Below are positions 27,461-46,086 of a stretch of 64,000 nucleotides of DNA, piece after piece; within the stretch, counting starts at the first letter, position 1; each line of letters opens with the position of its first letter. The notes under the pieces are model-generated. The model worked only from the letters and a program-made list of their open reading frames with translations. It was not told the origin of the DNA and searched no databases. The translations under genes were made by a program, and so were the position numbers. This DNA comes from Opitutales bacterium (GTDB lineage Bacteria; Verrucomicrobiota; Verrucomicrobiia; Opitutales; PNEW01): positions 1,152,001-1,216,000 of the forward strand of contig CBDANS010000006.1 in the NCBI GenBank assembly GCA_965197745.1, given 5' to 3'.

Positions 27461-28329
27461 TTATATATGCGGCTCTCTGATTGAGACTAGCCCAAAAATC
27501 TCATACCTTTCATAGCGAGACTGCATAGACTGCTATAAATTACAGCCCTTCAGAAGCAGAAGGTTTGTGAGGATTTCGGAGGACAATGAATAACAATCAG
27601 GTGAAGCTGGGCTTGTTTCTAAGGGGGGATCAATTTGTTTCCAGCATCCTGACAGTGAAAGATATTTGAGTATGCCCATGGAGTACCCCTTTAACCCCTA
27701 TGCTTCCACCAAAACGCGTATACGGTGTTTCCCATGCTGCCCATTTCTCTTAAGAGTGCCAAAGGCACTGTATTTTGATCGGACATGAGTGGGCGCAAGC
27801 ACACGAAGTCCCGTAACAGTAACCAGGGCTTGTTCGAAGAACGCAAACTCGGCCCGTGTATATCCCATGAATACCATCAGGGGATGTCTTTCGAGAGAAT
27901 CTCATGCCAGAGGCAATAACATAACACCTCAGAACTGTCCTCTTCCAGATGGGGTTCGCTTATACTGCATGAGCGTGGAGTGCGTCGATTATTTAAGAGA
28001 TGGAAAGCAACGCTCTGATCCATAAAAAACGGGTTTGTGTTCCAGGAAAGATGTCAGCTGACAAGTCAAGTTATAGATGTTAAGGAGGGGCCAAAAAGGA
28101 AATTTAAAACAGGAAAGTATTAAATAAGATGAATTATCAAAACATTAGTTCAATAGTGCATTTTACCTGTGATCAGAAAAACTCATCTGAAACCTGAGTT
28201 TCTGAATCTGCTTCATCGGGAAATCTGGAGGTGCTATTACAGGTACCTTCGCGATTAAACTTGTCTCTACCGGGCGCATAAATTCATTGTTTTCATCACA
28301 AGGTGCACTTAATCGGCAATGTTAAATCT

Positions 28330-28523
28330 ACTCAAAAATTCTTGGCCGATTCCTGACTGAACCTCATCAAAAAGTATTATTCCTGCCAATTCCTGGCAAA
28401 CATTTTGAGGCAAGGTCAGGAAAACAAAGGAAAATATAAATTATTATTGTATCGTTATTTAAATGTAACTATTTGTTAATAAGCAGCTTATAAGGCATTA
28501 TTGAGTCCCGTTCATAGTCGGTT
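28330..28523 (+). mobile_element. Element end with ATTCCT direct repeats terminating at TCGGTT (homologous to 45893..46086)
   Basis: About 190-bp alignment with 45893..46086 that stops right after CCGTTCATAGTCGGTT. Confidence 0.7.
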
Positions 28524-28826
28524 TCATCGAATCGTTCCATGCTCGTTTTCGCGAGGAGTGTTTAACCGTGAACAGTTATGGACTTTAACCGAAGCGCGCG
28601 TGGTAATCGAAGATTGGCGCTGGCTTTACAATCATGTCCGTCCCCACCGCAGCCCCGGCAATGTCACCCAACGGCACTTTGCTGAAGACATCAATGCCAA
28701 AGGCTTGGGCTCCATTCGGGCTACGCCCTCATTGCGCCCAAGCCTTGACTTCCTCTACCAACTTAACTTCAACTTAAACCTCTCCAGACTAACTCTCCCG
28801 GTGGACCAGTTTGCGTAATCCGACCA
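28519..28826 (+). mobile_element. 3' fragment of IS-A with its IRR
   Basis: (N)GFIES..NREQLWTLTEAR..GSIRATPSL, ends GTAATCCGACCA. Confidence 0.88.
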
Positions 28827-29210
28827 GACGCTCAAAGCCATCCAGCAGTGTCTGCGAGAGCACCCGATCGGCACGATTTATATCGACCATGACTGTCTCT
28901 GGCACAACGGACCTGCCGAAAACTTCAACCATCGCTTACGGGCTGAATGCCTTGAGCGCGAGTTGCTATACACCCTGACTGAATCCCGTGTGGTAATCGA
29001 ACCATAGCATCAGACCTACAATAATGAACATCCCCACAGTCGTTTAGGCTTTAAAAGCCCACTAGAGTTTGTCCGTTTCCTTTCCGATCTTGGCCGCGTT
29101 CGGGCTATGCTCTCACTTCGCCAAGATCTCTCCTATACAGCAATCCTAAAACCATTAACACCCGATAACTCTCTCACTTAATAATTGGTACGAAATACGG
29201 GATCCGATCA
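28827..29210 (+). mobile_element. 3' fragment of another IS3 element
   Basis: TIYIDHDCLWHNGPAENFNHRLRAECLERE..HPHSRLG, ends GGATCCGATCA. Confidence 0.75.
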
Positions 29211-29220
29211 GCACAATCAG

Positions 29221-29403
29221 CCCGTGTACTTACCCTTCCTACAGAGTTAGGTTTATTCGCTCACCCCTAATTTCGGACACCCTTCTACCACCTTCTACCT
29301 GTCTTTGCCCATTGATGATTAATACTTTCTCCTATTTTTTTATTAGGTTTTCGACCCACGCCAGACTAAATTTTAATCGCTCCAGTTCTACGCGGACAGA
29401 TCA
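29221..29403 (-). mobile_element. Decayed left end of IS-B
   Basis: GCTCACCCCTAA..CCAGACTAAAT..GGACAGATCA aligns with 45634..45892, with deletions. Confidence 0.75.
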
Positions 29404-29685
29404 ATAAACAATTACTATTGATGCGTATACACCGTGTCAGGGTATTTTGTTACGCAAGTTTTAAGTGAATGTAATTTCTTTATAGCAACTACAAACCTCA
29501 CCCTCCTCTTTTCTAAGTTTTAATATTCCTATCTATTCCTATCAAATTATAAGCACTTTAGTTCCTAATCTTGCCTTTGTATACTAATTTAATGATTAGA
29601 CATTTTCAATACATTAATATCTATATATTAGATATTTATATAATATATAAGTACTTGGGTGATATTTATTATATATCTATATTAT

Positions 29686-29958
29686 CGGTTTCTCTGTCCG
29701 GTTTGCGAATATCCGGTTCGTGTCGGACCGCTCAAATACCTTTACTGGACGCGGCGCACATTTCGAAAGATTAAACTCGGAATGCAGGGAGACTTCACCA
29801 TGGACGAACCCTATACCTGTCCGGCATGCGGAACGGCGCTCTTCGAAACCTGCTCTTCCTGTGAGAATACGAGACACTCGCTTTTACCGAACTGCCACCA
29901 CTGCGGAGCCGGGAAGCCGGATTTCAACGTAAGTCTGGGGATCGAAGAGAGCTCATAA
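29686..29958 (+). pseudogene. 3' zinc-ribbon fragment, probably the C-terminus of the gene cut at 3347
   Basis: RFLCPVCEYP...CPACG...CSSC...CHHCG; no credible start; coding-like composition starts abruptly at CGGTT. Confidence 0.7.
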
Positions 29959-30044
29959 TCACCGTGCAGCTACGGCGGCAAAACTTTGCACGGCTGGAAG
30001 ATCATCAACTGATCCCTTATAACCCTCTGTAAAAAAATACGCCA

Positions 30045-30956
30045 TCAATCTCCGTTTGCTTTCGCCCATGCCCTCAACGGAACATCGTCCCAATTTTCCG
30101 GCTGCCAGTACTGAGATGTCGGGTGAAAATTGGGATCCTTGCCCAATGGATTGTCCCCTACGGCCAAGGCTCCAAGCAGCTGACGCCGAATCGGTGAACA
30201 TCTGGCGATTAGTTCAGGGTCCTGCTGATTATAATCCGTGGGACGGAGCCACCGGTAATGGTAGCCAATGTGCATGATTTTTCGAATTTTTTCCGAGAGG
30301 TTCGGGCCGACGCAGTGCCAGGTGGCGGTACGCCACAACACCGCGGCCCCCGGCGGCAGCTTGAGTTCAACCGCGTCGAAAGCATCTGACTTGTCCTTCA
30401 TGGCCCACAATTCTTGAGGGGTCCGCTTGTAACTGCCCGGTGCTAACCACAGGTTACCGCAATTGGATTCACTAAGATCAGAGAGGACGTAGAACACTTT
30501 AATCTCCATGAAAGGAAGCCGTCCATCGAGTGAAGGTGCCGAGAAGATATGTTCGCTCGCCAGGTCCGGATGCCAGTTGACATTCAGGTAACCGACCTGT
30601 TTGTCTGCGCCGTCCCCGGCGCCAACATCGCCTGCCTGCAGGTCTTCCGGGTAAGGGGGGCGGTAGTCGAGATGAGAGGTCCGGATCTGGATGTTCCAAC
30701 CGATTGCGTCAACGACCAGTGGCAGCATTCTTGGGTGGTCGATCAAGTCGAGAAAGGCATCGTGATGGGCTAAGGCATTACGGATCGCAAAGGGGTCATC
30801 AGGGCCGATTCCTTTTTCGTCGCGAATCTTAGCGGCAACCTCATCGATGGCTGACAGTAATCGATCTAACTCCTCACGGGTTAAAAAATTTTCGAGGATT
30901 ATGTATCCCAATTCCTCGAAGTCTTTCTTCTGCTGAGGTGTCATTGCCAGGAGCAT
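30045..30956 (-). CDS. Phytanoyl-CoA dioxygenase (PhyH) family protein
   Basis: FEELGYIILENFL, WHPD, TWHCVGPN. Confidence 0.9.
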   Translation of the reverse strand: MLLAMTPQQKKDFEELGYIILENFLTREELDRLLSAIDEVAAKIRDEKGIGPDDPFAIRNALAHHDAFLDLIDHPRMLPLVVDAIGWNIQIRTSHLDYRPPYPEDLQAGDVGAGDGADKQVGYLNVNWHPDLASEHIFSAPSLDGRLPFMEIKVFYVLSDLSESNCGNLWLAPGSYKRTPQELWAMKDKSDAFDAVELKLPPGAAVLWRTATWHCVGPNLSEKIRKIMHIGYHYRWLRPTDYNQQDPELIARCSPIRRQLLGALAVGDNPLGKDPNFHPTSQYWQPENWDDVPLRAWAKANGD

Positions 30957-31033
30957 GGGTTTCCTTTTATGAGTTTATTCACGCCCGAAAAATAGGGTAA
31001 TGGCAATTATTAATTAAGGCAGTGTTAGGTTTA

Positions 31034-31061
31034 AGGGTTCAGGGTTCAGGGTTCAGGGTTC
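31034..31061. repeat. (AGGGTTC)4 tandem heptamer
   Basis: Direct reading. Confidence 0.9.
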
Positions 31062-31078
31062 AAGAAAATCGATAGCGT

Positions 31079-32752
31079 TTATTCCGGTGCCCACGCGCGA
31101 GGGGCAATGCCATCGAGGTGTGTTTTGACATCGACAACCGCTGGTTTTCCCGCGGCAAACGCCTGGTCCAGCGCACTTGCCAGTTCAGTTGCTTTGTTGA
31201 CGGTTATACCCAGACAGCCTATCGATTCTGCTATCCTGGCGAAGTCGGCATCGGGGAAGAGCCAGAGATCATCAGAACCTGCCGTCTGTCCGCCGTAAAT
31301 ATCTTCAACTCCACCTTTTTCCTGGTTCAGTGAGTGATTGTTGTTGACCAGGGTAACGGTGTTGATCCCGTACTTCAACGCGGTTTCCAAGTCAGCCAGA
31401 TGGTACCAGATACCGCCATCACCCGTGAATAAGAGGACAGGTCGGTCCGGTTGGGCACATTTGGCCCCCATCGCCGCGGGTAGACCCCATCCCAGCGAAC
31501 CGGCACAGCGAATAAAGGTCTGATCAGGGTGTTTAAGGTCTATCATGGTGCCGGTCCATACCCCCGAATGGCCCGTGTCGGAAACAAGAATTGCGTCGGA
31601 TGGAAGGTAGTCGGTCAGTTCCCGGCAGAGACGCTCCGGCAGGATCGGCATGATGTCCGAGTTGACCTTATCGCTTACGCTTTTTTCCCAGGTTTGGACC
31701 AACATCTGCATGCGTTTAATCCATTCCGTGTGCGGTTCAGCCGTATCAGCCTGCTCAATCATTTTGCGCAGCGTGTTTCTAACATCGCCCTGCATCCCCA
31801 CTTTAATCGAATAATTGCGGCCCAGTTCCTCAGCGTTAATATCGAGTTGGATGACCGGCGTTCCCCGCGGCGGGATGGTGTAGCTGTTGGTGATCTGTCC
31901 CCCGGTATGACTGCCGATAAAGAAGACCAAATCGGCCTCGCAGAGTGTCTGGTTGGCGCAAGCCCTTGAGTATAAACCCGGAATACCCACGGCAAGGGGG
32001 TGATCATAAGGAAACATGGCTTTGGCATTGAGGGAAGTGGCTACCGGAATTGAGAGTTTCTCGGCCAGGGCGATCAGTTCAGCGCGAGCGCCCGAACTGG
32101 TTACACCACCGCCAGCAACGATGACCGGCCGGTCGGCCCGGTTGAGTAACTGAAGCGCTGCCGAAATTTTTTCGGTCTCCGTTTCCGGACGGGAAGGGGG
32201 CAGATGGGTAAACATCTCTTCGATGATGACCTCCAAATCGGCCTCCTCATTAACGACCATTCCTCCTTCAAGGCCCTCCAGGTTCAGATGAACGGGGCCG
32301 GGTGTCCCCGATGTAGCTGAGCGGAAGGCCTGGCGTAAATAGATAGGGAGTTGTTCCGGATTGGAGACAAAAGCGCTGTATTTAGTGACGGCCGAGAAGG
32401 GATTGACATGATCGACTTCCTGGTAGGCGTGACGTTGTTGGTGGATCTGGTATTCCCGTCCGGTTATGGCAATGACCGGAGAACAGGCGAGGTAGGCGTC
32501 CTGTAAACCCGCGGCGAGATTAACCGCGCCCACCGATTGGGCCATACAGAGACCGGGGCTGCGGTTTACGCGGGCGTAAGCATCAGCCATATACGCAGCT
32601 GCTTTTTCACCGTGGGTTTGAATCCGCTTTATCCCCAGTTTTTCCATTTCCATCAACGCCCGGGGGGCGATATAGGGCATATAGAAAACATGGGTTAATC
32701 CGTGTCCATGGAATGTATCGGCAATGAATTTAGCGCCAGTCATTTTAGTCAT
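31079..32752 (-). CDS. Thiamine-diphosphate-binding enzyme (acetolactate synthase-like)
   Basis: HGEKAAAYMADAYAR, GSLGWGLPAAMGA, GDGG...NN. Confidence 0.92.
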   Translation of the reverse strand: MTKMTGAKFIADTFHGHGLTHVFYMPYIAPRALMEMEKLGIKRIQTHGEKAAAYMADAYARVNRSPGLCMAQSVGAVNLAAGLQDAYLACSPVIAITGREYQIHQQRHAYQEVDHVNPFSAVTKYSAFVSNPEQLPIYLRQAFRSATSGTPGPVHLNLEGLEGGMVVNEEADLEVIIEEMFTHLPPSRPETETEKISAALQLLNRADRPVIVAGGGVTSSGARAELIALAEKLSIPVATSLNAKAMFPYDHPLAVGIPGLYSRACANQTLCEADLVFFIGSHTGGQITNSYTIPPRGTPVIQLDINAEELGRNYSIKVGMQGDVRNTLRKMIEQADTAEPHTEWIKRMQMLVQTWEKSVSDKVNSDIMPILPERLCRELTDYLPSDAILVSDTGHSGVWTGTMIDLKHPDQTFIRCAGSLGWGLPAAMGAKCAQPDRPVLLFTGDGGIWYHLADLETALKYGINTVTLVNNNHSLNQEKGGVEDIYGGQTAGSDDLWLFPDADFARIAESIGCLGITVNKATELASALDQAFAAGKPAVVDVKTHLDGIAPRAWAPE

Positions 32753-32994
32753 TATGCTTACATCTCCTGATTATATTTTACCTGGTTAGCACCCTCAGTT
32801 GGCTAGAACAGGTAGATTCGGAATTGAATGCTCACTCGGATCTTCACGCTGCCATCTGGAATCGATATGATTTACTACCAGGCTTCCGGGCAATAGGACG
32901 TATCCTGTTTAATTACGGGTTTATGTAACTTTCCCCCCGCTGTTACGAAAAACAGCAGCGATGTCTTAAAAAGGTGAGAACTTATTGAGATCGA

Positions 32995-33300
32995 TCACTT
33001 ACTATAACCGTTTAATTTATACAGGGTGTATTTGACCGTAATTTCTTCCCCGGTTTTAATCTCTCTATTGGTTTCCATCAAAGTACAATCATCGCGTTCT
33101 AACTTAGAACAGTTTGGGGTGTCACTGTGATTTACATAACCCCCCAGAGGCGTGCGAATGGCGCCGTGATCAAATCTTTCATCCTTAATGTGAATGATGC
33201 CTAAAAGCGTCCCTCGCGGGAGGTCTTCTTTTGCGTAGATACCAAATCCATGAAGGGGGGATGCTTTGATGGTAAGAAAGTCGGGTAATGGTTTATACAT
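32995..33300 (-). CDS. Small SET-domain protein
   Basis: HGFGIYAKEDL, YVNHSDTPNC, IKTGEEITVKY. Confidence 0.9.
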   Translation of the reverse strand: MYKPLPDFLTIKASPLHGFGIYAKEDLPRGTLLGIIHIKDERFDHGAIRTPLGGYVNHSDTPNCSKLERDDCTLMETNREIKTGEEITVKYTLYKLNGYSK

Positions 33301-33434
33301 AATTCAAGGGTTTGTTTAGTAGATGATGACCCATCTTTTTTTTATTTTAAATCACCGCAGTCAAGAAAAAGATAAAGATATAGCTTATAAATTGAAAATA
33401 TACGCATTTCTAATCCCCTGGCAGACTTTTTTGA

Positions 33435-34343
33435 CTAGATGCGGTAATATATTTCCGCGTTTTTCCAGAACAAACGTGAACGTTCCCTCTCGGAAAAATC
33501 TTTGACAATCTCAGCATAGGCGCCCCATAGCCGGCTGTAGCCGGACATGATTTTATCGACGGGAAAATTACTGGCGAACATGCAGCGTTCGACTCCCATG
33601 ATCTCAATCGCACCCAGGACAAACGGTCTTATCATTTCCATGGTCCAGTTTTTGTTCATCATGGGCAAAGCCGAGATCTTGACTGAGACCTGCGACGCCT
33701 CGGCAAGTGATTGAAGTCCGGACTTCCACTGGTCCAGGTTCGATAGGTCCAAGTCTTTCGGCATTCCGGTGTGATTTAATATGATCGGAACCTCCGGGAT
33801 TTTTTTCGCAAGCTGGGCGGCCTCCTCCAGCTGCCATGGCCAGATCTGCAAATCGAAAGATAAATTGTTTTTACCCAGGAATCGAAAGCCACGCTGCCAA
33901 TCGGAATCGTTCATGAGGTGATTGTGATCAGTGAATCGAAGAGTGGAGTCTTCCGCAAAATTTAACATTTGACGAATACCGCGCATGTTCGGGTGCTCTA
34001 TGTGACGGGCCAGTGTATCGGCGACTTCGGGTGTGGATAAATTCGCAAACCCCACGATGGCATGGGGCATACCGCGGGAATACGGGTCGTCGGCAACAGA
34101 CTGAAGCCAGGCCGTCTCTTTCACGGGATCTTCGTCGTGATCGAACTCTACCTGGATATGAACGCACTTGTGCAGTTCAACGGCTGAGGCATCATTATGC
34201 AGGTCGACAATAAGGTATGACTTGGCGAGGTCAGAAAAGTCACCCGCGAAATGAGAAATGGGTTCGACAAGCCAGGGGTAGTGATTTTTTTCGAGATCCC
34301 AGAGGTGGATGTGCGTATCAATAATTTTCATCGTGGATTTCAT
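33435..34343 (-). CDS. Amidohydrolase_2 family protein (L-fuconolactonase-like)
   Basis: IIDTHIHLWD, ILNHTG, MFASNFPVD. Confidence 0.9.
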   Translation of the reverse strand: MKSTMKIIDTHIHLWDLEKNHYPWLVEPISHFAGDFSDLAKSYLIVDLHNDASAVELHKCVHIQVEFDHDEDPVKETAWLQSVADDPYSRGMPHAIVGFANLSTPEVADTLARHIEHPNMRGIRQMLNFAEDSTLRFTDHNHLMNDSDWQRGFRFLGKNNLSFDLQIWPWQLEEAAQLAKKIPEVPIILNHTGMPKDLDLSNLDQWKSGLQSLAEASQVSVKISALPMMNKNWTMEMIRPFVLGAIEIMGVERCMFASNFPVDKIMSGYSRLWGAYAEIVKDFSERERSRLFWKNAEIYYRI

Positions 34344-34400
34344 AGAGCCTTCATTTTACGGGGCAACAACCGTATGGCAAAATTGGCATTCGAGGCAGGT

Positions 34401-35345
34401 TTATTTTTCGATAAGACCCGTGATGAATGCCTGAAGTTCATCCTGTTGTTGATCATTGAACGTGTAATAAGGCGGTCTGCGGTAGCGTTTCGAATGGCCG
34501 GCAAATTCCAATATGCCGTGAACCGCCGCGTCAAAGCCACCTTCTACGGCATTTTCGCCAACAGCTTTTATATAATCAAATAAAGGCATATCGTAGTCAC
34601 GTATGAAATCGGTGGCTGTTTTCATATCCCCTTCGGATATGGCATTCCAATAGCGCCACGCCAATTCCGGGCAAAAGAGAATAAATAATGAGAAACCGCC
34701 ATCCACGCCATAGGGCAGCATGTTCATATGATTCTCTTTTAACCCTCCCGCGATTATCGCCCAATGGTCATGGGCAATAAGGCATACCTTTCGAACAAAT
34801 ACGCCGCCAACATCGTCCTTGAGAGCAACCACCCCGGGCGCGCGATTAACAAGGGCCTCGATTACTTTGTAAGCAAAAGCCTCCGGACGGTTTCTTAAAT
34901 AATTTGTTACAATCATAACAGGGATATGCTCACCTGCGGCACTGTAATGTGCGACGAGTGTTTCTACGGTTGTCGAACCCGCCCAGTCGGGAGGTAAAAC
35001 CATGAGCATATCCGCCCCCAGGTCCGCGCAGTATTTCGCGAATGCTTTTGTTTTTCCCGTCCACCATTGATGGGTGGCTGCAACGACCATGGCGCGATTA
35101 TTGACGTGCTTAACGACCACTTTGGTAACCTCTGTGACTTCACTATCATTGAGAAGGGAAAATAAACTGTCACCCCATGTAAGAATAACGTTCTTAGCAC
35201 CTGCCTCGATGACATAGTCCAGTTGCCGACACAGACCACCCCAGTCAATCTCACCATCTGATTTAAAAGGGGTTCGAATTGACGGACAGGGACCGGAGAG
35301 AGCGGTCCGAAGTTCGGGGGGGCATTTCTCAATAGTGTGAACCAT
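34401..35345 (-). CDS. Dihydrodipicolinate synthase family aldolase/lyase
   Basis: TPFKSDGEID, GADMLMVLPP, Schiff-base VALKDD. Confidence 0.88.
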   Translation of the reverse strand: MVHTIEKCPPELRTALSGPCPSIRTPFKSDGEIDWGGLCRQLDYVIEAGAKNVILTWGDSLFSLLNDSEVTEVTKVVVKHVNNRAMVVAATHQWWTGKTKAFAKYCADLGADMLMVLPPDWAGSTTVETLVAHYSAAGEHIPVMIVTNYLRNRPEAFAYKVIEALVNRAPGVVALKDDVGGVFVRKVCLIAHDHWAIIAGGLKENHMNMLPYGVDGGFSLFILFCPELAWRYWNAISEGDMKTATDFIRDYDMPLFDYIKAVGENAVEGGFDAAVHGILEFAGHSKRYRRPPYYTFNDQQQDELQAFITGLIEK

Positions 35346-35366
35346 AAATAATTCGTCAGACGTATA

Positions 35367-35963
35367 TTACTCTTTCTCGGTGTAACAGGACTCGACGATG
35401 GACGGATTTAAGAGGGAAATTTCTTTTGCAATCTCGTCGGTGGTATAGCGCGGCGTGATGTGTTGAGGGCAATTCCAATCATATGCGCGAATTTTCATGA
35501 TAAATATACGCTCGATGTGAGCTTCGTAGTCAGGCATTTCAACGCTCTTTACCAACTCAGGTTCTTCGTTGGCATGATGCACTTCGCTCTCGGCCCAGAT
35601 CTTCAGACGCTGCTTTGTCGGATAATCAATTAAAAACAGGGAAGTCTTTTTAGTGCTGATTATATTTCCGGAGCTGATGTACTGACGGTTTCCCCGGAAA
35701 TCAGCAAAGCCCAGGGTGCTATCGTCGAGAACTTTCAAGAAACCTATCGGTCCGCCGCGGAATTGAACATAGGGCCAACCGTTATCACCGACGGTTGCGA
35801 GATAAAAGCTGTCACGACTTTCAATAAAAGGTTTTTCGCGATCGGTAAGAACGTAACGATCACCCGAAAGTTCCATACGTGAGTAGGATTTGCGCGAGCC
35901 ATACTGCTCCTGAAACTGCTTTACGCTCTCGGTAAAAGCATACTTTGTGAAATTTTCATTCAT
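35367..35963 (-). CDS. Pyridoxamine 5'-phosphate oxidase family FMN-binding protein
   Basis: FYLATV..GWPYVQFRGGP.GFLKV, DWNCPQHITPR. Confidence 0.92.
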   Translation of the reverse strand: MNENFTKYAFTESVKQFQEQYGSRKSYSRMELSGDRYVLTDREKPFIESRDSFYLATVGDNGWPYVQFRGGPIGFLKVLDDSTLGFADFRGNRQYISSGNIISTKKTSLFLIDYPTKQRLKIWAESEVHHANEEPELVKSVEMPDYEAHIERIFIMKIRAYDWNCPQHITPRYTTDEIAKEISLLNPSIVESCYTEKE

Positions 35964-36124
35964 TTTATTTCCTTTCACTTAATTTATTTACAGGAGGCTA
36001 TATTTCTGAGGGATTAACTGTCGAGGATTTGAGGCAGCTTACTTTCCTTGTATATTTAATTTAATGCGGATTTAATTACCTGTTACCGGGTCATTTTCTT
36101 CAAGATTATTTAGCATGCAAGGTT

Positions 36125-36608
36125 ATGAGAACGCTTCGTGAATATTGGGTATTCGCGATTATTTTAAAGGCTGCGATCATCATGGGTCTCCTGGGCTGCT
36201 CGGAGAACAATGATTCCAGAACTGAAATCGAACGGGATGTGCCGAAACGAGGACCCGTAAATACTGAAGGATTCCGCTTTCATTACACCGGTCCGTTCCC
36301 CACAACCTTCAGTGAAGCTCCAGAACTTGCTAAAATGGTCGAAGAGGGTAAATTGCCGCCAATCATAGACCGCCTTCCGGAGGAACCCCTGGTTGTTCCC
36401 CCTATCGAGAGGATCGGGCAATACGGCGGCACCTGGAAGCGCGGATTCACCGGGCCTATTGACCGTCAAAATATCGACCGGATTATGCATGACCATATGG
36501 TCTATTACGACCTGGACGGACATACCCTGATGCCGCATATTGCGAAAGGTTGGGATATGAGCGAAGACGGAACTACCTTTACTTTCCATCTGCGCAAGGG
36601 GATGAAGG
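36125..36608 (+). pseudogene. 5' part of a family-5 ABC substrate-binding lipoprotein, cut by IS-A copy 2
   Basis: Lipobox LLGC, FSEAPEL..LPP..DRLP, FHLRKGMK then the IS. Confidence 0.9.
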
Positions 36609-37926
36609 TGGTCGTGACCACGAAAACTGGTACACTTGAAAAGTTAGTCTGGGTAACCTAGAAAGGACTCAGACAATGAAAGGCAAAAGATACACAACTG
36701 AAGAGAAAATACGGATGCTGCGGCAGGCGGACAAAGGGAAAACGATCCTGGAAGCATGCCGCGAGAACAACATTAGCGAACAGACTTTCCACCGCTGGAA
36801 GCGTGAGTTTGGGATGATTGATGTCGACCAGGCCAAGCGGATGAAGGAACTCTTTGAAGGAGAACGCGCGGTTAAAACGGATGCTGGCGGACAAGATGCT
36901 GGGGATAGAGATCCTGCAGGAGACCCTCGAAAAAAAACTGTAAGCCCTGGGCACAAGCGGCAAGTGGCAGAGAGACTTGTGGCTCGGGGCCAGTGTTCGA
37001 TGCGAGCGGGGTGCCGGTACTTTCGGCTGCACCGTTCCACCTATGCGTATAAGGCGAAGCATCCGGATGCTTGGTTAATGAAACTGAAGGCGGCAGTAAG
37101 GCGGTTATCACGGCAATATGCCAGGTGGGGCTATCCGAAGATCACGAAGCTGTTGAAAGACGAAGGCTGGGAGGTGGGTAAACGTCTCGTGCAAGGTCTA
37201 CGACGCGAACTGGGCTTGGCGATCCCCCAACGCAAGCCAAGACGTCGGGGCAGGGGTGTTTCCACCGGGCTGCCGACCAAGGCCGAACATCCCGGCCATG
37301 TTTGGACCTGGGATTTTATCCACGATAAGACGGTCCGCGGTGGCAGTTTAAAAATGTTGACCGTGCTCGATGAGTACACCCGCGAGTGTCGAGTGATCCA
37401 TGTTGATCGCCATATCAATGCGGAAACGGTGCGCGGTATCATGCAAAAACTGCTTGCCCGTCATGGGCCGCCACAATATATTCGCAGTGACAACGGTTCC
37501 GTTCCGAGGAGCGAAGCGACGACATGCGAAGCCATTCATTGAAAAGGAATTGAGAGCCTGGCTAACTGCGATGAAAATCAAAACCCTCTATATCGAACCA
37601 GGAAGCCCTTGGCAGAACGGATACATCGAATCGTTGCATGCCCGTTTTCGCGAGGAGTGTTTAAACCGTGAACAGCTATGGACTTTGACCGAAGCCCGCG
37701 TGGTGATCGAGGACTGGCGCTGGCTTTACAATAATGTCCGACCCCACCGCAGCCTCGGCAATATCACCCCACGGTGCTTCGCTGAAGACATTAATACCGA
37801 AGGCTTGGGCTCCATTCGGGCTACGCCCTCATTGCGCCCAAGCCTTGACTTCCTCTACCAACTTAACTTCAACATTAACCTCTCCAGACTAACTCTCTCG
37901 GTGGACCAGTTTACGTAACCCGATCA
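36609..37926 (+). mobile_element. IS-A copy 2, almost identical to 3348..4665
   Basis: Same IRs and identical translated transposase ORFs; no flanking direct repeat. Confidence 0.95.
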
Positions 37927-37970
37927 GGTGCAGACACTCCCGTGAGTTAACATTAGCTTTATGGAGTCAA

Positions 37971-38957
37971 ATGAACGAAGACCGAATAAAACATTTTCTT
38001 GTAGAAATTGGAATTAAAGGAGCGGATGATATCTATCGAAAGTCTTATTTCAGCAATGATTTTACGGATAGGCAGATTTATGTCGTAGAAAATAGTGCAA
38101 TAATAAAAACCTATAGTCGAAACGCACTTGGCAGTTATACGCTTGAGCAATATCTTGGGTCCATTATTGAGCAAGAAAACATATGGGCACCTCAGATTCT
38201 AGGGTATGCTTCATATGATGACGAAGCCTACCTTGTATTAGACTTCGTTGCCGGTCCCGTGTTGAATGATGTATATCAACAGCTGTCGTTTCATGACTAC
38301 TGCTTCATGCTAAGCTCATTGGGAAAAGCGATGCATTCGTTTCATTCCGTAAGCTTAAACGATAGACTGAATGTTCCTACCATTAAAGGGCATTCACCAA
38401 ACCATGTAACCGAGTCCAAGCAAAGATGGCGTGATTACACTGTTACCCTTGAGGCATTGTGCGATGCTGAACTGGTGACTCATATCGGCAAGACTGTCAT
38501 TTGCAGCTGTATTGACAATGTGTCTGACAGGGCGTTTTCAACAGATACCGTATTAAGCCATACGGATATTCACAACGAGAACGTGATGTTCGATAAGCGA
38601 AACTCGGAACGGCCGATCTCGATCATCGACTGGGAAATGGCCGCGATCCAGCCCAAGGAGCTGGACTTCGTTCATCCACTCCTGAATATCTTAGGTGAAG
38701 GATTTCCTGGGAGGCGTTTGGCCAATCAAGTCGTCTGTGGCAGTCAGAACGAGTTTCTAAGATCATTTGAAGATGGATATGGAGAGAGAATTGATTGGGA
38801 GGTTGTGATTTGTCACAGTTTTCTCTGGTATCTGGAATGTGCTCTCGAATCACATAATGAAGGTGAGGAAAGTTTAAGAAACTTCTATATTAAAACAGGA
38901 TTGGGTGGCTTGGAGTTTATAGGAGGGACTCAGTTAGATGAACTAACAAATGTATGA
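37971..38957 (+). CDS. APH/choline kinase family phosphotransferase
   Basis: HTDIHNENV, IIDWE. Confidence 0.87.
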   Translation: MNEDRIKHFLVEIGIKGADDIYRKSYFSNDFTDRQIYVVENSAIIKTYSRNALGSYTLEQYLGSIIEQENIWAPQILGYASYDDEAYLVLDFVAGPVLNDVYQQLSFHDYCFMLSSLGKAMHSFHSVSLNDRLNVPTIKGHSPNHVTESKQRWRDYTVTLEALCDAELVTHIGKTVICSCIDNVSDRAFSTDTVLSHTDIHNENVMFDKRNSERPISIIDWEMAAIQPKELDFVHPLLNILGEGFPGRRLANQVVCGSQNEFLRSFEDGYGERIDWEVVICHSFLWYLECALESHNEGEESLRNFYIKTGLGGLEFIGGTQLDELTNV

Positions 38958-39056
38958 AAAGTTAAATCGAGTCAGGCCATGTATTCCGGTAAAATAGTAA
39001 AATGCCAGTACCGAGCCTCGAAACTGCGGGACGACAGTTCACATGCAGCGCATGAC

Positions 39057-39989
39057 TTATTTCTCTTCAATCGCCGGATCGCCGTCGTTATCATCGACAG
39101 ATTGGTTGGATAAAATTTGAATTAATACAGCTCGATTCGGTCCGGAAGCAACTATCTGGCATTCGAAATTCTCGTTAACATCTATTGACGACTCCGCCGC
39201 TATTCTGTATTCTCGTTCTGCAGCCCCGAGAAATGTAGATTGGGATCTAAACGCATCCCTGGTGTAGTGTTCTGCAGATAGCCTCAGTCTAACTAATCTC
39301 TCTTCTTTCGCATTGTTTACTATCCGAAAATGCGTATGCGCAACGTTTTCTTCAAATCCCCATGTTGTATCAACTATCTCAATTTCGCTTTGCTTCAGGA
39401 GTGCGTAAATGAGCGATACAATAAGGCAAGCAGCGATAGTAGACCAAAACATCAAAGCATTTCCTTTTTTCCTTTTTTTCATCGACGTAGTTTGTATGCC
39501 AGGCTGTGGGGTGCGGTGCGATTGTAACCTATCGAACCTTTGGCGATTCTCGAAGACATCACTCTTCACGTATGGATTGGATTGCTTCGACCCTCCTTTA
39601 ACTGTCGCCGTTAATTCGCTCATCCGCTTGTCAATTTCGGTCTGGAGCCCTTTACCGACAAAACCAGAACACTTATTATAGAAGAACAATGCTTTTTCGA
39701 AGTTTTCAATCTTCGTGTCATTGCATTCGCTTCCTATTCCTTTCGCTCGATAAATTTCACTCATCAAGTAGCTTTTCTCGATAACCATTCGATCTGATTC
39801 CTCGAAAAGACGATAGACTTCGTCAACCGAGAGTGAAAGCAACATGCTTGCTGGCAAGCCAATCCATTGGCCGGTTATTTCATCAAGATCTGCTTCAATA
39901 CTTTCTTGAGAGGAGCTTTGATTGAGGATGCGGCGAATAAATTCACCTATCTGTTGAATCATCCGTAAAATATAATCTTCTCGAATCAT
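39057..39989 (-). CDS. DUF6483-like N-terminus, TM helix and C-terminal beta domain; hypothetical
   Basis: MIREDYILRMIQQ start; one TM segment. Confidence 0.7.
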   Translation of the reverse strand: MIREDYILRMIQQIGEFIRRILNQSSSQESIEADLDEITGQWIGLPASMLLSLSVDEVYRLFEESDRMVIEKSYLMSEIYRAKGIGSECNDTKIENFEKALFFYNKCSGFVGKGLQTEIDKRMSELTATVKGGSKQSNPYVKSDVFENRQRFDRLQSHRTPQPGIQTTSMKKRKKGNALMFWSTIAACLIVSLIYALLKQSEIEIVDTTWGFEENVAHTHFRIVNNAKEERLVRLRLSAEHYTRDAFRSQSTFLGAAEREYRIAAESSIDVNENFECQIVASGPNRAVLIQILSNQSVDDNDGDPAIEEK

Positions 39990-40255
39990 ATGCCTTCATG
40001 CCCCCAAGCGCTATGACGTGCGCCGACTTGTTAGCGTGCTTTGGTCAGGGTTCAGGTTAATCGCGAGAATGGCGAGCCGAAAGAACGGTCCCTTTATCGG
40101 TTCCACTTTAGCGAAAACGACTGACTGAATTTGTGAAATCCTTGAGGAAATAAGAGTGAGCGCTTCCGAAGCAGAATTGACCTTCTTCTATTATAGCCCA
40201 ATAAATGCTTATTCTTTTGGACTTTTCAGAATCCGTTCAACTCTTTTAGCAAACA

Positions 40256-41077
40256 ATGTCTATAATCAACACAGTAGATCATGAGCACGCATCTCGCTTT
40301 AAAGCAAATAGTGTTGTGGAACGGTATGGGTTTCGTTCTCCTTATCACCGGGATATAATTGATTTTCTCATTTCACTGATCCCTGAGCATGCGACAGCCG
40401 TACTGGATGCCGGTTGTGGACCGGGAAAGATCGCGCGTGAATTAATAGGTAAGGTTGATCGCATCGATGCTGTTGATTTCTCGGAAGAAATGATCCGACT
40501 GGGCAAATCATTGCCTAATGGCGACAATCCTAAAATCTGCTGGATGCACTCGAGAATTGAAGAGGCAACACTCAATCCGCCCTACGGTCTAATAGTTGTC
40601 GGTGCCAGTTTGCATTGGATGGAGCTGAATCTTGTTTTTCATAAGTTTAATGATGCGCTCGATCCAGCTGGCTCTCTAGTTATTATTGATGGGGATGGCC
40701 CCTGCAAAGTCCCTTGGGAGGAATTTCGAAATGATCTGATTTCCGAGTATTCAACCTATAAAGACTTCGTTCCCTTTGATGCGGTAAAAGCGTTGGAAAG
40801 CTCGGGTTATTTTTAGTTGATTGAACATCGCGTAATGGGGCCTTACGATTTCAATCAAACGATTGACCAATTTCTGAACGCAGAACACTCGCGAGCGTCT
40901 CTCTCAATAGAAGGACTGGGGGAAAACAAACGAAATGAATTTGACTGTAAAATGAAGGAAATTCTTCAACCGTTTATCGAAAATGGTATTTTAAAATACC
41001 AAGTAAAAACACGGGTCGTGTGGGGAAAAGCCATACACTGTGAACAGGATAACCAGATGAATAGTTCTACAGCGTAA
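40256..41077 (+). pseudogene. Class I SAM-dependent methyltransferase with an in-frame TAG at 40814
   Basis: VLDAGCGPG, SLHW; the frame continues past the stop to 41077. Confidence 0.85.
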
Positions 41078-41907
41078 TGGCTAAACATATAGAAGAATTG
41101 AATAGGAAAATGTTCTCTTCTGCTTCTAAGTTTCTTGAGGGAAGCAGAAGTGAAATGGATAAATCCTATATCAATTTCATTTCTGCAGCTATAAAGAATA
41201 AAGGCGTAACTAATTTTTTGGACATCGGTTGTGGGTTAGGATTCTTAACGAAAATCACAAAATCACTTGTCCCCAAATCTAGTGCAACGGGAGTAGATAT
41301 TTCTCCTGAATTAATTGAAATTGCTAAAAGAGATTCAGACGAGACATACAATTTTAAAGTCGATGACGCGTACGATTTATCATTTGAATCGGATACTTTT
41401 GATCTAACTATATGTCAGACTTTATTTATGCATTTATCACAACCTGAGAAAGCGTTGCGTCAGATGATTCAGGTTACTAAGCCGGGAGGTCAAGTTTTAG
41501 TAATTGAACCAATAATTCACTCTGACGGAAAGAATAGCTATGTTCCTGGAGAAGGATCAGTGAAAAAGATGCAAAGAGACAAGCTACATCGCTTTGATCA
41601 GACTCAAAAGGAAAGTGGAGGAATTGATATGTTTATTGCACCTAAGTTACCGAGTCTGTTTTTACAAAATAACTTAAATGACGTTCAAGTAACCTCTTTC
41701 AATCATTTTATATTAAAGACAGATTTAGTTTCAGAAAAATTAGATAAGGTTGAATTAAGTTCATATTATAAAATGATGATTTCATTAGGTTATCCAAAAT
41801 CCGAAATTGAAGAACTATTAAAGAATGAAGCTTTGTATAAATCCGTCCCAGGTGAGTTCAATTTTATAACATTGCTTGCGGTATCTGGCATTAAACCAAA
41901 TACATAG
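41077..41907 (+). CDS. Class I SAM-dependent methyltransferase
   Basis: FLDIGCGLG, GVDIS, TKPGG. Confidence 0.9.
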   Translation: MAKHIEELNRKMFSSASKFLEGSRSEMDKSYINFISAAIKNKGVTNFLDIGCGLGFLTKITKSLVPKSSATGVDISPELIEIAKRDSDETYNFKVDDAYDLSFESDTFDLTICQTLFMHLSQPEKALRQMIQVTKPGGQVLVIEPIIHSDGKNSYVPGEGSVKKMQRDKLHRFDQTQKESGGIDMFIAPKLPSLFLQNNLNDVQVTSFNHFILKTDLVSEKLDKVELSSYYKMMISLGYPKSEIEELLKNEALYKSVPGEFNFITLLAVSGIKPNT

Positions 41908-41964
41908 ATTTGATTGGGTTAAAAACGTAGAACATAGGGTAGAAAATAAATAACACGAACCGCT

Positions 41965-42435
41965 ATGAATCCTCAGTACGACGACCAATGTGAATCATGT
42001 AAAAACCTGCAAGGACAGATACGATTATCTAATGCACCAAGAATATTTGAAACTGCTCATTGGATAATTGAACACGTGCATCCCACTTCGGTAGAGGGAT
42101 GGGTGGTGTTGGTTTTAAAGAGACATTGCAAAGCCCTTCATGAACTAACTGCAGATGAATATTCAGAATTTAGTAAATTGCTTAAATCCGTTTGTGAAGC
42201 ATTACACAGTATACTAGATACAGAAAAAGAATACGTCATGCAATTTGCAGAAATGGCTGGATTCCACCACGTTCATTTTCATGTAATTGCCAGAGGAAAG
42301 GACTGGCCTGCAGAACTCAAAGGGCCACGAGTATTTTCTGGACACGGGGAAAAGGTGGAAAATCCTTTGACGTCCGAAGTAACAATTTCAATCGCGCTTA
42401 AAATTCAAAGTTATCTTCAATCACATTTTGAGTGA
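41965..42435 (+). CDS. HIT family protein
   Basis: CxxC and HHVHFHVI triad. Confidence 0.88.
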   Translation: MNPQYDDQCESCKNLQGQIRLSNAPRIFETAHWIIEHVHPTSVEGWVVLVLKRHCKALHELTADEYSEFSKLLKSVCEALHSILDTEKEYVMQFAEMAGFHHVHFHVIARGKDWPAELKGPRVFSGHGEKVENPLTSEVTISIALKIQSYLQSHFE

Positions 42436-42468
42436 TGACTTTTATTATACTTGGTGAACTGAATTTCT

Positions 42469-43479
42469 GTGATGTCTCCTACATTCCCAATTAATACATC
42501 TATTATATCCAGTGATGCTCTCCTGGAAAGAGTGTTAAATAGATATGTATTTAAAGGGGAAATAGAGTGTCATTTCTTTTGTTCTCGTGTAAATGACACA
42601 TATATTGTCGAAACGGATTCGAAGACTTACTACCTCCGCGTATATTATTACAGATGGAGATCGAGACGAGATATAGATGCAGAAATTGAACTTTTAAATT
42701 ATCTAAAGAAAAAGAAGATACCTGTTTCTGTCCCCGTAAAAAGAAAAGACGGATCATACATTACCAGGATAAATGCACCTGAGGGCATTCGATATGCCGT
42801 GTTATTTACAGGTGCTGAGGGTAGAGTTCCTCTTAATATGAACAATAAGCGTAGTTCATTATATGGAAAACTAGTAGCTAAAATTCACAATGTGACAGAT
42901 AAACTGGATAAAGAATATTTGAGATTCCACATTGATCTGAAGCATTTAATTGATGATCCATTGTGTCATATAGAATCATTACTTAAACATAGAAAAAACG
43001 ATTTTAATTATCTTTGTAAAATTGGAGAATCGCTGAAGCTTGAAATCGACAAGTTGTTACCCAAAACCAAACCACAATATGGAATATGTCATGGTGACCA
43101 CTTTGGTGGTAATGTTTTCTTTAACGAAAACGATGAATTGACGCTATTTGATTTTGATTGTTTTGGATATGGATGGAGAGCTTACGATATTGCTGTTTTT
43201 CTGTCTTCTAGAACTACAATTGGCAATTGGAGTATAGAAGCGAATTCAAAAAGGACAAGACGTTGGAACGCTTTCTTGAAAGGTTATACTAAGGAACGAG
43301 AGCTGAGTGACGAAGAAATAATAGCAACAAAGATATTCGTTCCGATTAGGCAAATATGGGTTTTAGGTTTGCAAACACAAAGTTCCGAACGATTCGGAAG
43401 AGCATGGATGGGCGATGCATATTTCGACCAGCATATTAATTTCATCAAGGATTGGATTAAAAACTACAAAGTATTATGA
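42469..43479 (+). CDS. Homoserine-kinase-type-II / APH family phosphotransferase
   Basis: CHGDHFGGN, FDFD, YDIA. Confidence 0.9.
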   Translation: MMSPTFPINTSIISSDALLERVLNRYVFKGEIECHFFCSRVNDTYIVETDSKTYYLRVYYYRWRSRRDIDAEIELLNYLKKKKIPVSVPVKRKDGSYITRINAPEGIRYAVLFTGAEGRVPLNMNNKRSSLYGKLVAKIHNVTDKLDKEYLRFHIDLKHLIDDPLCHIESLLKHRKNDFNYLCKIGESLKLEIDKLLPKTKPQYGICHGDHFGGNVFFNENDELTLFDFDCFGYGWRAYDIAVFLSSRTTIGNWSIEANSKRTRRWNAFLKGYTKERELSDEEIIATKIFVPIRQIWVLGLQTQSSERFGRAWMGDAYFDQHINFIKDWIKNYKVL

Positions 43480-43579
43480 GTGTTCTAACTAGTGATTCTT
43501 GAACACAATTTCATCAATCTATTATTGGAAATAAAGGCTCAATTCAAAATTTAATACCAGCAAACAGTGTCGAATAAAA

Positions 43580-44596
43580 ATGAATATCGACTATATCATT
43601 AAATATTTCAACAAGCGCAAAACCAGAATTAATCCGGATAAAGAACCTGGGTTTAGTTCTGCAATAATCCATAATGGGCAGATGATTTATGAATTAAATC
43701 ATGGTCTAGCCAATCTTGAGCATGAAACTCCGCTAACCAGCAGTTCTCTGTACTATTTGGCTTCAGTGTCTAAACAGTTTACTGCGACCTGTGTTTTAAA
43801 TTTAGTAAACGATAAACGACTAAAGTTAAGTCAGGACATTAGAGAGATTGTAAAGGAGACAAAACATTTTAAAAAGAAAATCACAGTTCAAAATTTATTA
43901 AATCATACAAGTGGTATACCAGATTACTTCCAGTATTTTGCTTGTCAGCTTGGGCGACATCCAAGTGACTACTTTGAAAACGCAGATATTTTAAGAGTTT
44001 TGAGTAATATTTATTCCGTTGATTTTCAACCAAACGAAAAATTTAGTTATAGTAATACCAACTATATTATTCTCACCCAGATAGTAAAACTTATCTCTGG
44101 AATATCGTTTCCTAAGTATGCAAAAAAAGTAATATTCACTCCCTTAGGAATGAAAATAACGCTTTTTGATAACGATAGGTACAAAGTTATTAAGAATCGG
44201 GTATATAGTTATACTACTGAGTCTAACAAACCACGAAGATATAGAGTTGAATTGAAAAATTCGTGTACCGTTGGCGATGGAGGTGTTCTTTCTAATATCA
44301 ACGACCTTGCTAAATGGGAGATAAACTTCCATGACAATAAAATCTTACCAAAGAATATAATTAGAAGACTAACAAACAATTTAAGATTATCGAATGGTAA
44401 GTATGTTAATTATGGTAATGGTCTATTTCTGAAAGATGTAGGTAAATATAAATTAAATTATCATGGTGGAGCGTTTGAGGGATTTCGTACATATAATCTT
44501 AGAGTTCCATCAATGAAATTGTCTGTTATTTATCTTTCTAACAATCCTTCACAAGTTTTTGATTTTAACCCCAGTTTCATTTTTAGAAAGAAATAG
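43580..44596 (+). CDS. Serine hydrolase, beta-lactamase family
   Basis: ASVSKQF, LLNHTSG, YSN, HGG. Confidence 0.9.
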   Translation: MNIDYIIKYFNKRKTRINPDKEPGFSSAIIHNGQMIYELNHGLANLEHETPLTSSSLYYLASVSKQFTATCVLNLVNDKRLKLSQDIREIVKETKHFKKKITVQNLLNHTSGIPDYFQYFACQLGRHPSDYFENADILRVLSNIYSVDFQPNEKFSYSNTNYIILTQIVKLISGISFPKYAKKVIFTPLGMKITLFDNDRYKVIKNRVYSYTTESNKPRRYRVELKNSCTVGDGGVLSNINDLAKWEINFHDNKILPKNIIRRLTNNLRLSNGKYVNYGNGLFLKDVGKYKLNYHGGAFEGFRTYNLRVPSMKLSVIYLSNNPSQVFDFNPSFIFRKK

Positions 44597-44602
44597 CTGA
44601 CG

Positions 44603-45892
44603 TGACCTGCACCCGATTACTGTACCAGAGCCAGTGTTAGATCCGGCAGGGTGGTATGGGTTTTAATTTTCTTAGACATGGCTCTCTGGGCGTATTCGGC
44701 CGGAGGCCGATAGCCCAGAGAGCTGTGTGGTCTTTGAGTATTATAATCAAGCCGCCAGGTTTCAAGTTTTTCTTTCACTTGTACCAGCGTAATAAATATC
44801 TCGGTGTTAAGAAGTTCATCGCGCAAGCGTCCATTGAAGCTCTCTATATAGCCATTTTCTACGGGTTTACCTGGCCGGATAAAATCCAGCTCGATGCCAT
44901 GGCCATAAGCCCACTGATCCATTACTTTGCCGGCAAACTCAGGACCATTATCGACGGTAATGGTTTCGGGAAGACCGATTCGTTCAGCGGCTTTCGTAAG
45001 TGCTGCAGTGACTTTATGACCACCGATGGACGTATCGGCCAGAAGCAGTGGGCAAGCTCGGGTATACTGATCGACAACGGTGAGAATGCGGAAAGGGCGG
45101 CCGTTGACCAGCCGATCGCTCATAAAGTCCATCGACCAGCGTTCCTGGGCAGCTGAAGCCGCGGGCAGTGAGACCCGCCTTTGCGCGGCACGCTTCTTAC
45201 GTTTCTTCGTGCGCACTTCCAGCCCTTCAGCCTTGTAGATCCGATAGACGCGTTTCTTTCCTACCGACCAGCCCTCCCGCTTTAACCAGCCCTCCCGCTT
45301 TAATAACACCGTGATTCGCCTATACCCGTAGCGCACACGCGCGGCGGCGAGGTCTCGTATGCGCACAATCAGCGCGCGTTCGTCCCTCATCACCGGCTGA
45401 TAGTTATAACTCGACCAATACAACTGCATCAGCCTGCACGCCCGGCGTTTGCTCACTGCATAAGCTTCCACTAACCACTCAACAATCGCCTTCTTGCCCA
45501 CTGGCTTTATAACTTTTTTGCGATTACTTCCTGCAGCATGTGCTTGTCCAGGCTCAGATCAGCTACCAGTTTCTTCAAACTGCTGTTCTCTTCGTCAAGT
45601 TGCTTCAGCCGTCTTAATTCACTTATTCCCATGCCCGCGTATTTACCCTTCCAACGGTGGTAGGTCTGTTCGCTCACCCCTAACTCCCGGCACACTTCAG
45701 CGATCCTTCGACCACCTTCAACCTGCCTTAGGGCATAGATGATTTGTTCATTATTATAGCGTTTGTCAGGCCTTCTCGGCTGCGCCTCGTTTTCCTTTGC
45801 TTTTCATGGGTCGTTCTTTCTTCTATTATTTATTTGTTTTTCACCCATGCCAGACTAAATCTTGGCTGCTACAGTTTTTCGGGGACAGGTCA
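44603..45892 (-). mobile_element. IS-B copy 2, full length; orfA broken by a 28-nt insertion; 18-bp duplication in orfB
   Basis: TGACCTG at both ends; orfA ATG 45807, orfB 44617..45501 with DDE motifs and LKREGW twice. Confidence 0.93.
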
Positions 45893-46086
45893 ACTAAAAA
45901 AACTCTTGCCCAATTCCTGGCTGAAAATCAACAAAAAGCATGATTCCTGCCCATTCCTGCCAAGCATTTAGAGGCAACGTCAGGAAATCAGAGGAAAACA
46001 TAAATTATTTATGTATCGCTATTTAAGTTTAAACATTTATTAATAAGTGACTTATGAACATTACTAAGTTCCGTTCATAGTCGGTT
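45893..46086 (+). mobile_element. Element end with ATTCCT direct repeats terminating at TCGGTT
   Basis: Homologous to 28330..28523; the SBP frame resumes at GGT TAT ACA GTT. Confidence 0.7.

Follow-up and report, generated by a model that had tools for sequence, protein, structure and literature searches.

Three segments of a 64,000-nucleotide stretch from an Opitutales bacterium (contig C6, positions 1152001-1216000; hereafter the window) are very probably the integrase-distal arms, on the attR side, of genomic islands moved by tyrosine integrases. An earlier note, made from the letters of this stretch, had described them as right ends of a tyrosine-recombinase integrative family with a CGGTT target core. 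Two of the segments, at 28330-28523 (copy A) and 45893-46086 (copy C), are homologous and are called X-type here; the third, at 29404-29690 (copy B), is unrelated to them in sequence and is called B-type. Intact members found elsewhere bear out the assignment to such a family, since in these an integrase is paired with an X- or B-type arm at the opposite end, and they lie within split targets and correspond to empty sites in relatives. CGGTT as a strict target core did not survive the comparison. These elements are ordinary cargo islands of 15-34 kb, not a new class of mobile element, and no new recombination machinery is called for. They are mildly unusual in the promiscuity of their symmetric targets, which include transposase genes of IS3-family insertion sequences (IS), and in the one-sided survival of their far ends.

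The genome containing the window (G000; 4.45 Mb in 7 contigs, 92% complete) was compared with three others of its family (G001, G002 and one further genome) and with 37 genomes from the same order.

Intact islands and their integrases

An intact island with a B-type arm is present in G002. There, the B-type end (…CAGTCCTCGG; C2:~1609.6 kb) is followed by ATTGTGGTTCCGGGGGTCGCCGGTTCAAATCCGGTCAGCCACCCCA, the 3' 45 nt of tRNA-His, beginning in the anticodon loop (junction CCTCGG|ATTGTGGTTCC...). That 29-mer is found again on the same strand at a distance of 34 kb, within an intact tRNA-His identified by ARAGORN, and the gene for a 421-aa tyrosine recombinase, which matches PF00589 above the cut-off (54.9 bits), follows directly (C2:~1643.5 kb). 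The B-type repeat motif ATCCTATCATATTCCTATCAT lies between this tRNA gene and the integrase gene, upstream of the latter. As described in the Islander study, one end of a tRNA-integrating island has the regenerated tRNA gene together with the integrase, the opposite end is marked by a displaced 3' fragment of the tRNA, and 'anticodon centered' attP sites form a major class (PMC4383910). The G002 island has exactly this layout, with the crossover in the anticodon loop and the stem providing the putative inverted half-sites. Unlike the islands described there (PMC4383910), most copies in G000 occupy secondary targets, namely IS3 transposase genes, a hairpin resembling repetitive extragenic palindromes (REP-like) and protein-coding genes, and their integrase side is mostly lost.

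Six homologues of the G002 integrase are encoded in G000, at 43-44% identity, and those on C7 (48.5 bits) and C4 (45.8 bits) match PF00589 above the cut-off. In the G002, C7 and C4 islands alike, the integrase gene is located just inside attL. For five of the six, a co-oriented X-type end lies no more than 45 kb downstream (at 15.4, 17.0, 30.6, 37.0 and 39.4 kb); two integrases have one end in common, leaving four distinct pairs. When ends were placed at random, a mean of 0.52 integrases were paired, and five were reached in 2 of 20,000 trials. The linked recombinase and cognate left end that the earlier note had suggested looking for are present elsewhere in the genome, in intact islands whose attL arm bears CCGTCT.

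Two islands in G000 have both junctions resolved. The C4 island (30.6 kb) has the attL sequence gcgataTCGGTATCAGCTCCCGTCTattataa (given also as …gcgataTCGGTATCAGCTCCCGTCTattataaTATATACC…) and the attR sequence ttcatagTCGATATCAGCTTCCGTTGagcac, and the two flanking halves belong to one extracytoplasmic function (ECF) sigma-factor gene, as judged by Pfam. Its flanks are contiguous in G001 and G002; therefore, the 30.6 kb between them is an insertion. The C7 island (15.5 kb) has attL GACGGGTCTGCCTCCCCGTCTTTTAAAG|AATATATC and attR TCGGTTCTGCCTCTTCGTCTTCG (TCGGTT|CTGCCTCTTCGTCTTCG), with the 7-nt centre CTGCCTC in common. Here too the flanks are contiguous in both relatives, so the island is a 15.5-kb insertion into the REP-like hairpin. 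Neither an attL-attR joint nor a circle junction of the C7 island was found in the contigs of four public runs, which are short-read contigs that break at repeats. Islands with dusA-specific integrases enter the 5' end of a protein-coding gene (PMC4482086). The C4 island resembles them in this kind of target, the target gene being a different one, and the present family is promiscuous, not tied to a single gene.

ARAGORN reported 44 tRNA genes in G000 and no tRNA-His. Only a 3' tRNA-His fragment is present (C7:1519817-1519860), with a B-like end (…CTACAGTATCGATT) in front of it. An intact copy of the gene probably lies in an assembly gap, perhaps beside another island.

Conserved arms and the core

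The earlier note had reported two homologous segments of about 190 bp with a common end, an unrelated third segment ending in TCGGTT, and paired ATTCCT repeats in all three, and each of these descriptions stands. Copies A and C are AT-rich and 82% identical over ~190 bp, and their similarity breaks off directly past CCGTTCATAGTCGGTT. A whole-genome search found 15 X-type copies in G000, 11 of which end in exactly CATAGTCGGTT; three have near variants (TCGATA, TCGGTA and TCGAAT) and one is decayed. One of the copies is at C6:659 kb, where a crude ORF map has genes on both strands. Additional copies with the identical end are present in G001 and G002, and the arm is absent from the further same-family genome and the 37 same-order genomes. 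A scan of genome-collection contigs for the pattern ATTCCTGNNNATTCCTG-N105-135-ATAGTCGGTT returned a single locus, in a related Opitutales metagenome-assembled genome, and none beyond the Opitutales clade. Copy B has one paralogue in G000 (C1:26916-27181; 79% identity), with which its homology likewise halts at TCGGTT, and relatives in G002.

The pattern ATTCCT-N4-ATTCCT occurs in the window at exactly 28379, 29525 and 45943, against 0.04 occurrences expected, and three or more were seen in none of 100 shuffles. Across the genome, 12 of its 13 sites fall inside X- or B-type copies; therefore, the two types have a putative functional motif in common, their unrelated sequences notwithstanding. 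In copy B the repeats read ATTCCTA (29525 and 29535) and GTTCCTA (29561), and in the integrase group of 428-429 aa, ATTCCTG is found ~20 bp into the upstream arm of three of the four copies. Within the window, TCGGTT alone shows no enrichment (38 matches expected, 41 present), so it is its position, not its number, that is non-random.

Lambda-Int-type heterobivalent integrases use both arm-type and core-type sites. The present family is similar in having short repeats phased by ~10 bp at 105-175 bp from the crossover in both arms, putative inverted core half-sites around a short overlap, and an integrase with an extra N-terminal region. We propose a family of islands moved by a lambda-Int-like tyrosine integrase, in which the window segments would represent the P-arm side of attR and ATTCCT(G/A) is most likely the arm-type site, predicted to be bound by the extra N-terminal region. 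An intact island would begin with the left half of the target and the integrase-side arm, continue with the integrase gene (416-432 aa) and, behind it, 15-34 kb of cargo, and close with an X- or B-type arm that ends in AGTCGGTT and meets the right half of the target.

The integrase-side arm always reads CCGTCT, nine bases before (A/T)ATATA(T/C)C, in the C4 island, in three full C7 copies and at a junction in the IS3-A subfamily, and the X-type arm always reads AGTCGG(T/A)(T/A). AGTCGG agrees with AGACGG, the reverse complement of CCGTCT, at five of six positions, and the two stand as AGTCGG ... CCGTCT in the reconstructed attP. Judged by sequence, the two resemble inverted core half-sites flanking the region of exchange. 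Specifically, AGTCGGTT and CCGTCT would flank the overlap of strand exchange, which would be why homology between copies stops right past TCGGTT, and the circular attP is predicted as ...CATAGTCGG(T/A)T - 7 nt - CCCGTCT.... TCGGTT is thus best read as an element-side core half-site next to the overlap, rather than as a required target core, and the homology break just past it as the edge of that overlap.

CGGTT is not a fixed part of the empty sites. At the junction point, intact IS3 copies read AACGGTT|TCATCGAG (IS3-B) or AACGGAT|ACATCGAA (IS3-A), and the intact counterpart of the flank at window position 28524 reads AACGGAT|ACATCGAATCG. Orthologues of an interrupted solute-binding protein (SBP) gene read GATGATT|ATACGG and GACAATT|ATACTA, and those of an ankyrin gene CATTTT|TTCGC and CATCAT|TTCGC. 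Of these empty sites, the one in IS3-B contains CGGTT. The SBP orthologues, which the earlier note had expected to be informative on this point, lack CGGTT in G001 and G002 but are intact, confirming the interruption itself.

Inward of the right end, homology between X-type copies spans from 190 to ~840 bp and then diverges. Only three copies extend to ~770-840 bp; a common left end of the arm could not be fixed from them, nor was TCGGTT found there. At the inner edge of the conserved arm, X- and B-type copies alike have a near-palindromic motif, GCGTAYRCRGTGT, which may be a candidate protein-binding site. Its exact pattern has three sites genome-wide, all in arms (window 27714-27728, C6:1450385-1450399 and C1:26911-26925), and copy B has a close variant at 29421-29437 that the exact pattern misses. 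When the open frames of the conserved arm (both strands; copies C4 and C6:1451k) were compared with Pfam, no family matched at E<=10. A short open reading frame (ORF) starting MKNNKFMRPVETS... (window 28240-28296, minus strand) occurs at the equivalent place in other X-type copies, beginning just inside the AT-rich arm and reading inward. It was rejected as a conserved gene: it is intact, at 42-56 codons, in two copies and is broken or of other length in the remaining ones.

Targets of the islands and other possible origins

The right flanks of the 15 X-type copies comprise eight fragments of IS3-family orfB, three REP-like sequences (reading CTGCCTCTTCGTCTTCG), the SBP gene and the ECF sigma-factor gene; the other two copies have decayed ends. 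All eight IS3 flanks begin at the same codon of (N)GFIES, in two IS3 subfamilies, each with dozens of copies (46-49 BLAST matches to 150-nt flank queries). The B-type ends of G002 adjoin the tRNA-His fragment and a truncated MgtC-like reading frame, the latter read by eye. Targets would be symmetric, of the form CGG-N8-10-(C/T)CG, and would include the anticodon stem-loop of tRNA-His, the REP-like hairpin, the site in IS3 transposase genes that codes for GFIES and, now and then, another gene. In 10 of 12 distinct target types, (C/T)CG is found 8-10 nt past CGG, against a background of 1000 of the 10,253 genomic CGGTT sites (9.8%); two further B-type regular-expression matches, one on C5 and one on C6, were left out of the 12. 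A single attL-type junction in IS3-A orfB has the spacing CGT-N9-AATATATC, as in other attL sites.

The prominence of IS3 among these flanks might suggest that IS3 activity or IS-IS recombination gave rise to the junctions as by-products, and that the AT-rich DNA is a mere hot spot that collects IS3 fragments. Besides the eight orfB flanks and the abundance of both subfamilies, IS3 ends abut several copies on the left. We nevertheless consider this origin very improbable, as the same nucleotide of the arm is joined to tRNA-His, SBP, sigma-factor and ankyrin genes, to the MgtC-like frame and to REP-like hairpins; breaks inside orfB are not made by IS3 transposition, and the empty sites in relatives correspond to insertions of whole islands.

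Under the island reading, (N)GFIES-coding DNA, a motif that we take to lie near the catalytic glutamate of IS3 transposases, could be a regular secondary attachment site of the integrase family, so that island spread and IS expansion would be mechanistically coupled in this symbiont lineage; we regard this as possible rather than likely. If it is true, each IS3 burst makes new landing pads and each landing knocks out an IS copy, while IS-IS recombination strips the integrase side and leaves one-sided attR scars. That islands attach in IS3 transposase genes and in the REP-like hairpin is a modest, testable point on the interplay of islands and IS during IS expansion in a host-associated genome.

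The REP-like hairpin (GACGAAGACGG...CTTCGTCTTCGTC; for example C7:166014-166100) is abundant in G000, G001 and G002. It forms the right flank of the X-type copies at C7:150508, C7:1049285 and C7:988584, and it is also the insertion point of a 1.28-kb IS110-family element with four near-identical copies. Elements of the IS110/IS1111 family use repeated hairpin-like targets, have sharp, repeat-free ends, and encode a DEDD transposase that works with an RNA guide. The X- and B-type segments share the targets and the ends with this family, as compared with the IS110 copies of G000. This raises the alternative that the AT-rich segment encodes the guide or bridge RNA of an IS110-type or TnpB-type element, steering insertion to IS3 genes and repeats, an idea in keeping with a constant end, the lack of inverted repeats and the use of the same REP-like repeat by the genome's own IS110 elements. 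We give it next to no likelihood. Unlike in IS110/IS1111, no DEDD transposase adjoins any copy (the six DEDD matches in the genome all lie elsewhere), and tests of copy A and its surroundings gave no sign of a structured RNA: window positions 27000-30500 have no Rfam match at E<=1, and the arm of copy A folds no better than shuffled sequences on either strand (z -1.5 and -1.0). The TnpB zinc ribbon PF07282 has no match in the genome, its controls matching in 8 of 14 genomes, and the genome encodes no reverse transcriptase. A search of the genome for Y2 transposases was also empty, and its controls were equally silent.

A number of observations count against tyrosine-integrase islands as the source of the segments. 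G000 has 15 X-type ends and only six integrases, and unlike in lambda-Int-type enzymes, the ~145 N-terminal residues of the integrase matched no Pfam family, arm-binding ones included. Arm fragments lacking the right end were not found in G000 or its relatives, a bias that is accounted for by inference only. Among 86 left parts of IS3, not one meets island DNA at the CGG(T/A)T site and a single one does so 12 nt further on, with attL-like spacing, against the eight right junctions between X-type arms and IS3. The CGG-N8-10-YCG pattern was set post hoc, after the data had been viewed. On the contig of the window, neither a Phage_integrase (PF00589) match nor an integrase-side (P'-arm) remnant or attL was found, within the window or elsewhere; hence the earlier statement that the recombinase and left ends are deleted locally holds, and the three window copies are assigned by arm homology. 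Finally, the B-type copy on C1 has a second TCGGTT about 265-271 bp inward of the right end, at the point where homology to copy B begins on the left, which is unexplained.

This second hexamer would fit small non-autonomous transposons, like miniature inverted-repeat transposable elements (MITE-like), that duplicate or require TCGGTT and insert themselves into genes, and removal of the interval between the two hexamers on C1 keeps the frame open. Such an origin is hardly credible, and it is largely refuted by the intact copies, which are paired with integrases 15-34 kb off and have empty sites in relatives. In addition, the DNA to the left of the C1 copy is not orthologous to the 5' part of the ankyrin gene in G001 and G002, copy B reads CTATTG at the position corresponding to the second TCGGTT, and the X-type copies have no common left end.

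A separate candidate end at the IS3 site, 'Element Y', was rejected as an element end, being a 42-bp in-frame insert in an IS3 orfB subfamily, 9 bp upstream of the GFIES site. The insert (CTACCGAGCGAAGCGACACCTCAACGAGCC...AATAACAA, read as LPSEATPQRAIARIT) is present at C7:161092-161143 and in at least 12 other IS3 copies (for example C6:565960-566011), and not in the window IS3 copies examined. Several copies that have it change to TACCGAGGAACGTAGTGACGACATAGC 33 bp downstream. Both inserts start with TACCGAG, pointing to a mobile or hairpin insert of small size.

The three copies in the window

Coordinates of the window features are collected in the table below. Copy C closes an island remnant, at least 8 kb long, by which the SBP gene was split, and the orthologues of this gene in G001 and G002 are uninterrupted across the junction. 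SBP residues ~125-172 are absent, as are attL and the integrase side, and the DNA past 37926 is not SBP. The 3' part of the gene has a frameshift near 46624-46673 (overlapping ORFs 46146-46673 and 46624-47496), so the gene has been decaying since its interruption. Copies A and B are located in a heap of IS fragments. All three copies are orphans whose integrase sides were probably lost through IS insertion and IS-IS recombination. Specifically, we infer that IS3 copies within the islands recombined with a long left part of IS3, which would have deleted the integrase side.

The earlier note had proposed that reading frames resume at each of the three junctions. This holds for IS3 orfB (G-F-I-E-S) and for the SBP gene (Y-T-V-R-Y). 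For the zinc-ribbon frame, at 29686, no orthologue in G001 or G002 and no paralogue in G000 was found and no empty site was obtainable, so that an interruption is not demonstrable there.

Features of the window (window coordinates) and the basis of each call
Feature	Position	Strand	Basis
X-type attR arm remnant A (integrase-distal arm)	27688..28523 (left limit approximate)	+	homology to C1:23687-24260; gapped homology to C6:1450358-1451349 and C4:165117-165887; sharp right edge at 28523
Putative arm-type integrase sites, copy A	28349..28423	+	ATTCCTG at 28349, 28379, 28389; inverted CAGGAAA at 28417
Element-side core half-site AGTCGGTT (putative)	28516..28523	+	inter-copy homology ends past its last T
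IS3-family orfB 3' fragment from the (N)GFIES codons, target side of attR	28524..28826	+	repeat families D1, D8
B-type attR arm remnant, ending in TATCGGTT	29404..29690	+	left side cut by IS3-family end at 29403; repeat family D10
Double-zinc-ribbon ORF right of the B-type end	29691..29958	+	weak Pfam DZR match, under the cut-off
Family-5 SBP gene, 5' fragment (~residues 1-124 of paralogue query)	36125..36600	+	tblastn C6:1188257-1188607; ORF translation; Pfam SBP_bac_5
IS3-family copy, left edge of island remnant	36596..37926	+	repeat families D1-D4; ORFs
Island cargo remnant, 6.7 kb, low GC	37927..44602	+	Pfam
IS3-family element (rve domains) inside X-type arm, trimming the arm to 194 bp	44603..45892	-	repeat families I1-I4, I9-I10; Pfam
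X-type attR arm remnant C, ending in CATAGTCGGTT	45893..46086	+	
Putative arm-type sites, copy C (layout as in copy A)			ATTCCTG at 45913, 45943, 45953; inverted CAGGAAA at 45981
SBP gene, 3' part, resuming at ...YTVRY	46087..47496	+	Pfam; tblastn

When these Opitutales genomes are annotated, an arm of X- or B-type with (A)GTCGGTT at its end can be taken to mark the far end of an integrase island or of its scar. Such a rule delimits horizontally acquired cargo (here, low-GC genes for kinases, methyltransferases and a beta-lactamase-family protein) and explains several 5'-truncated genes. By Pfam, the cargo remnant encodes two APH-family kinases, a DUF6483-like protein, two methyltransferases, a HIT protein and a beta-lactamase-family protein, and its GC content (0.382) is below that of the window (0.457) and of the SBP gene (0.487). 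Every enzyme gene of the remnant is on the same strand, and the DUF6483-like gene is on the opposite one.

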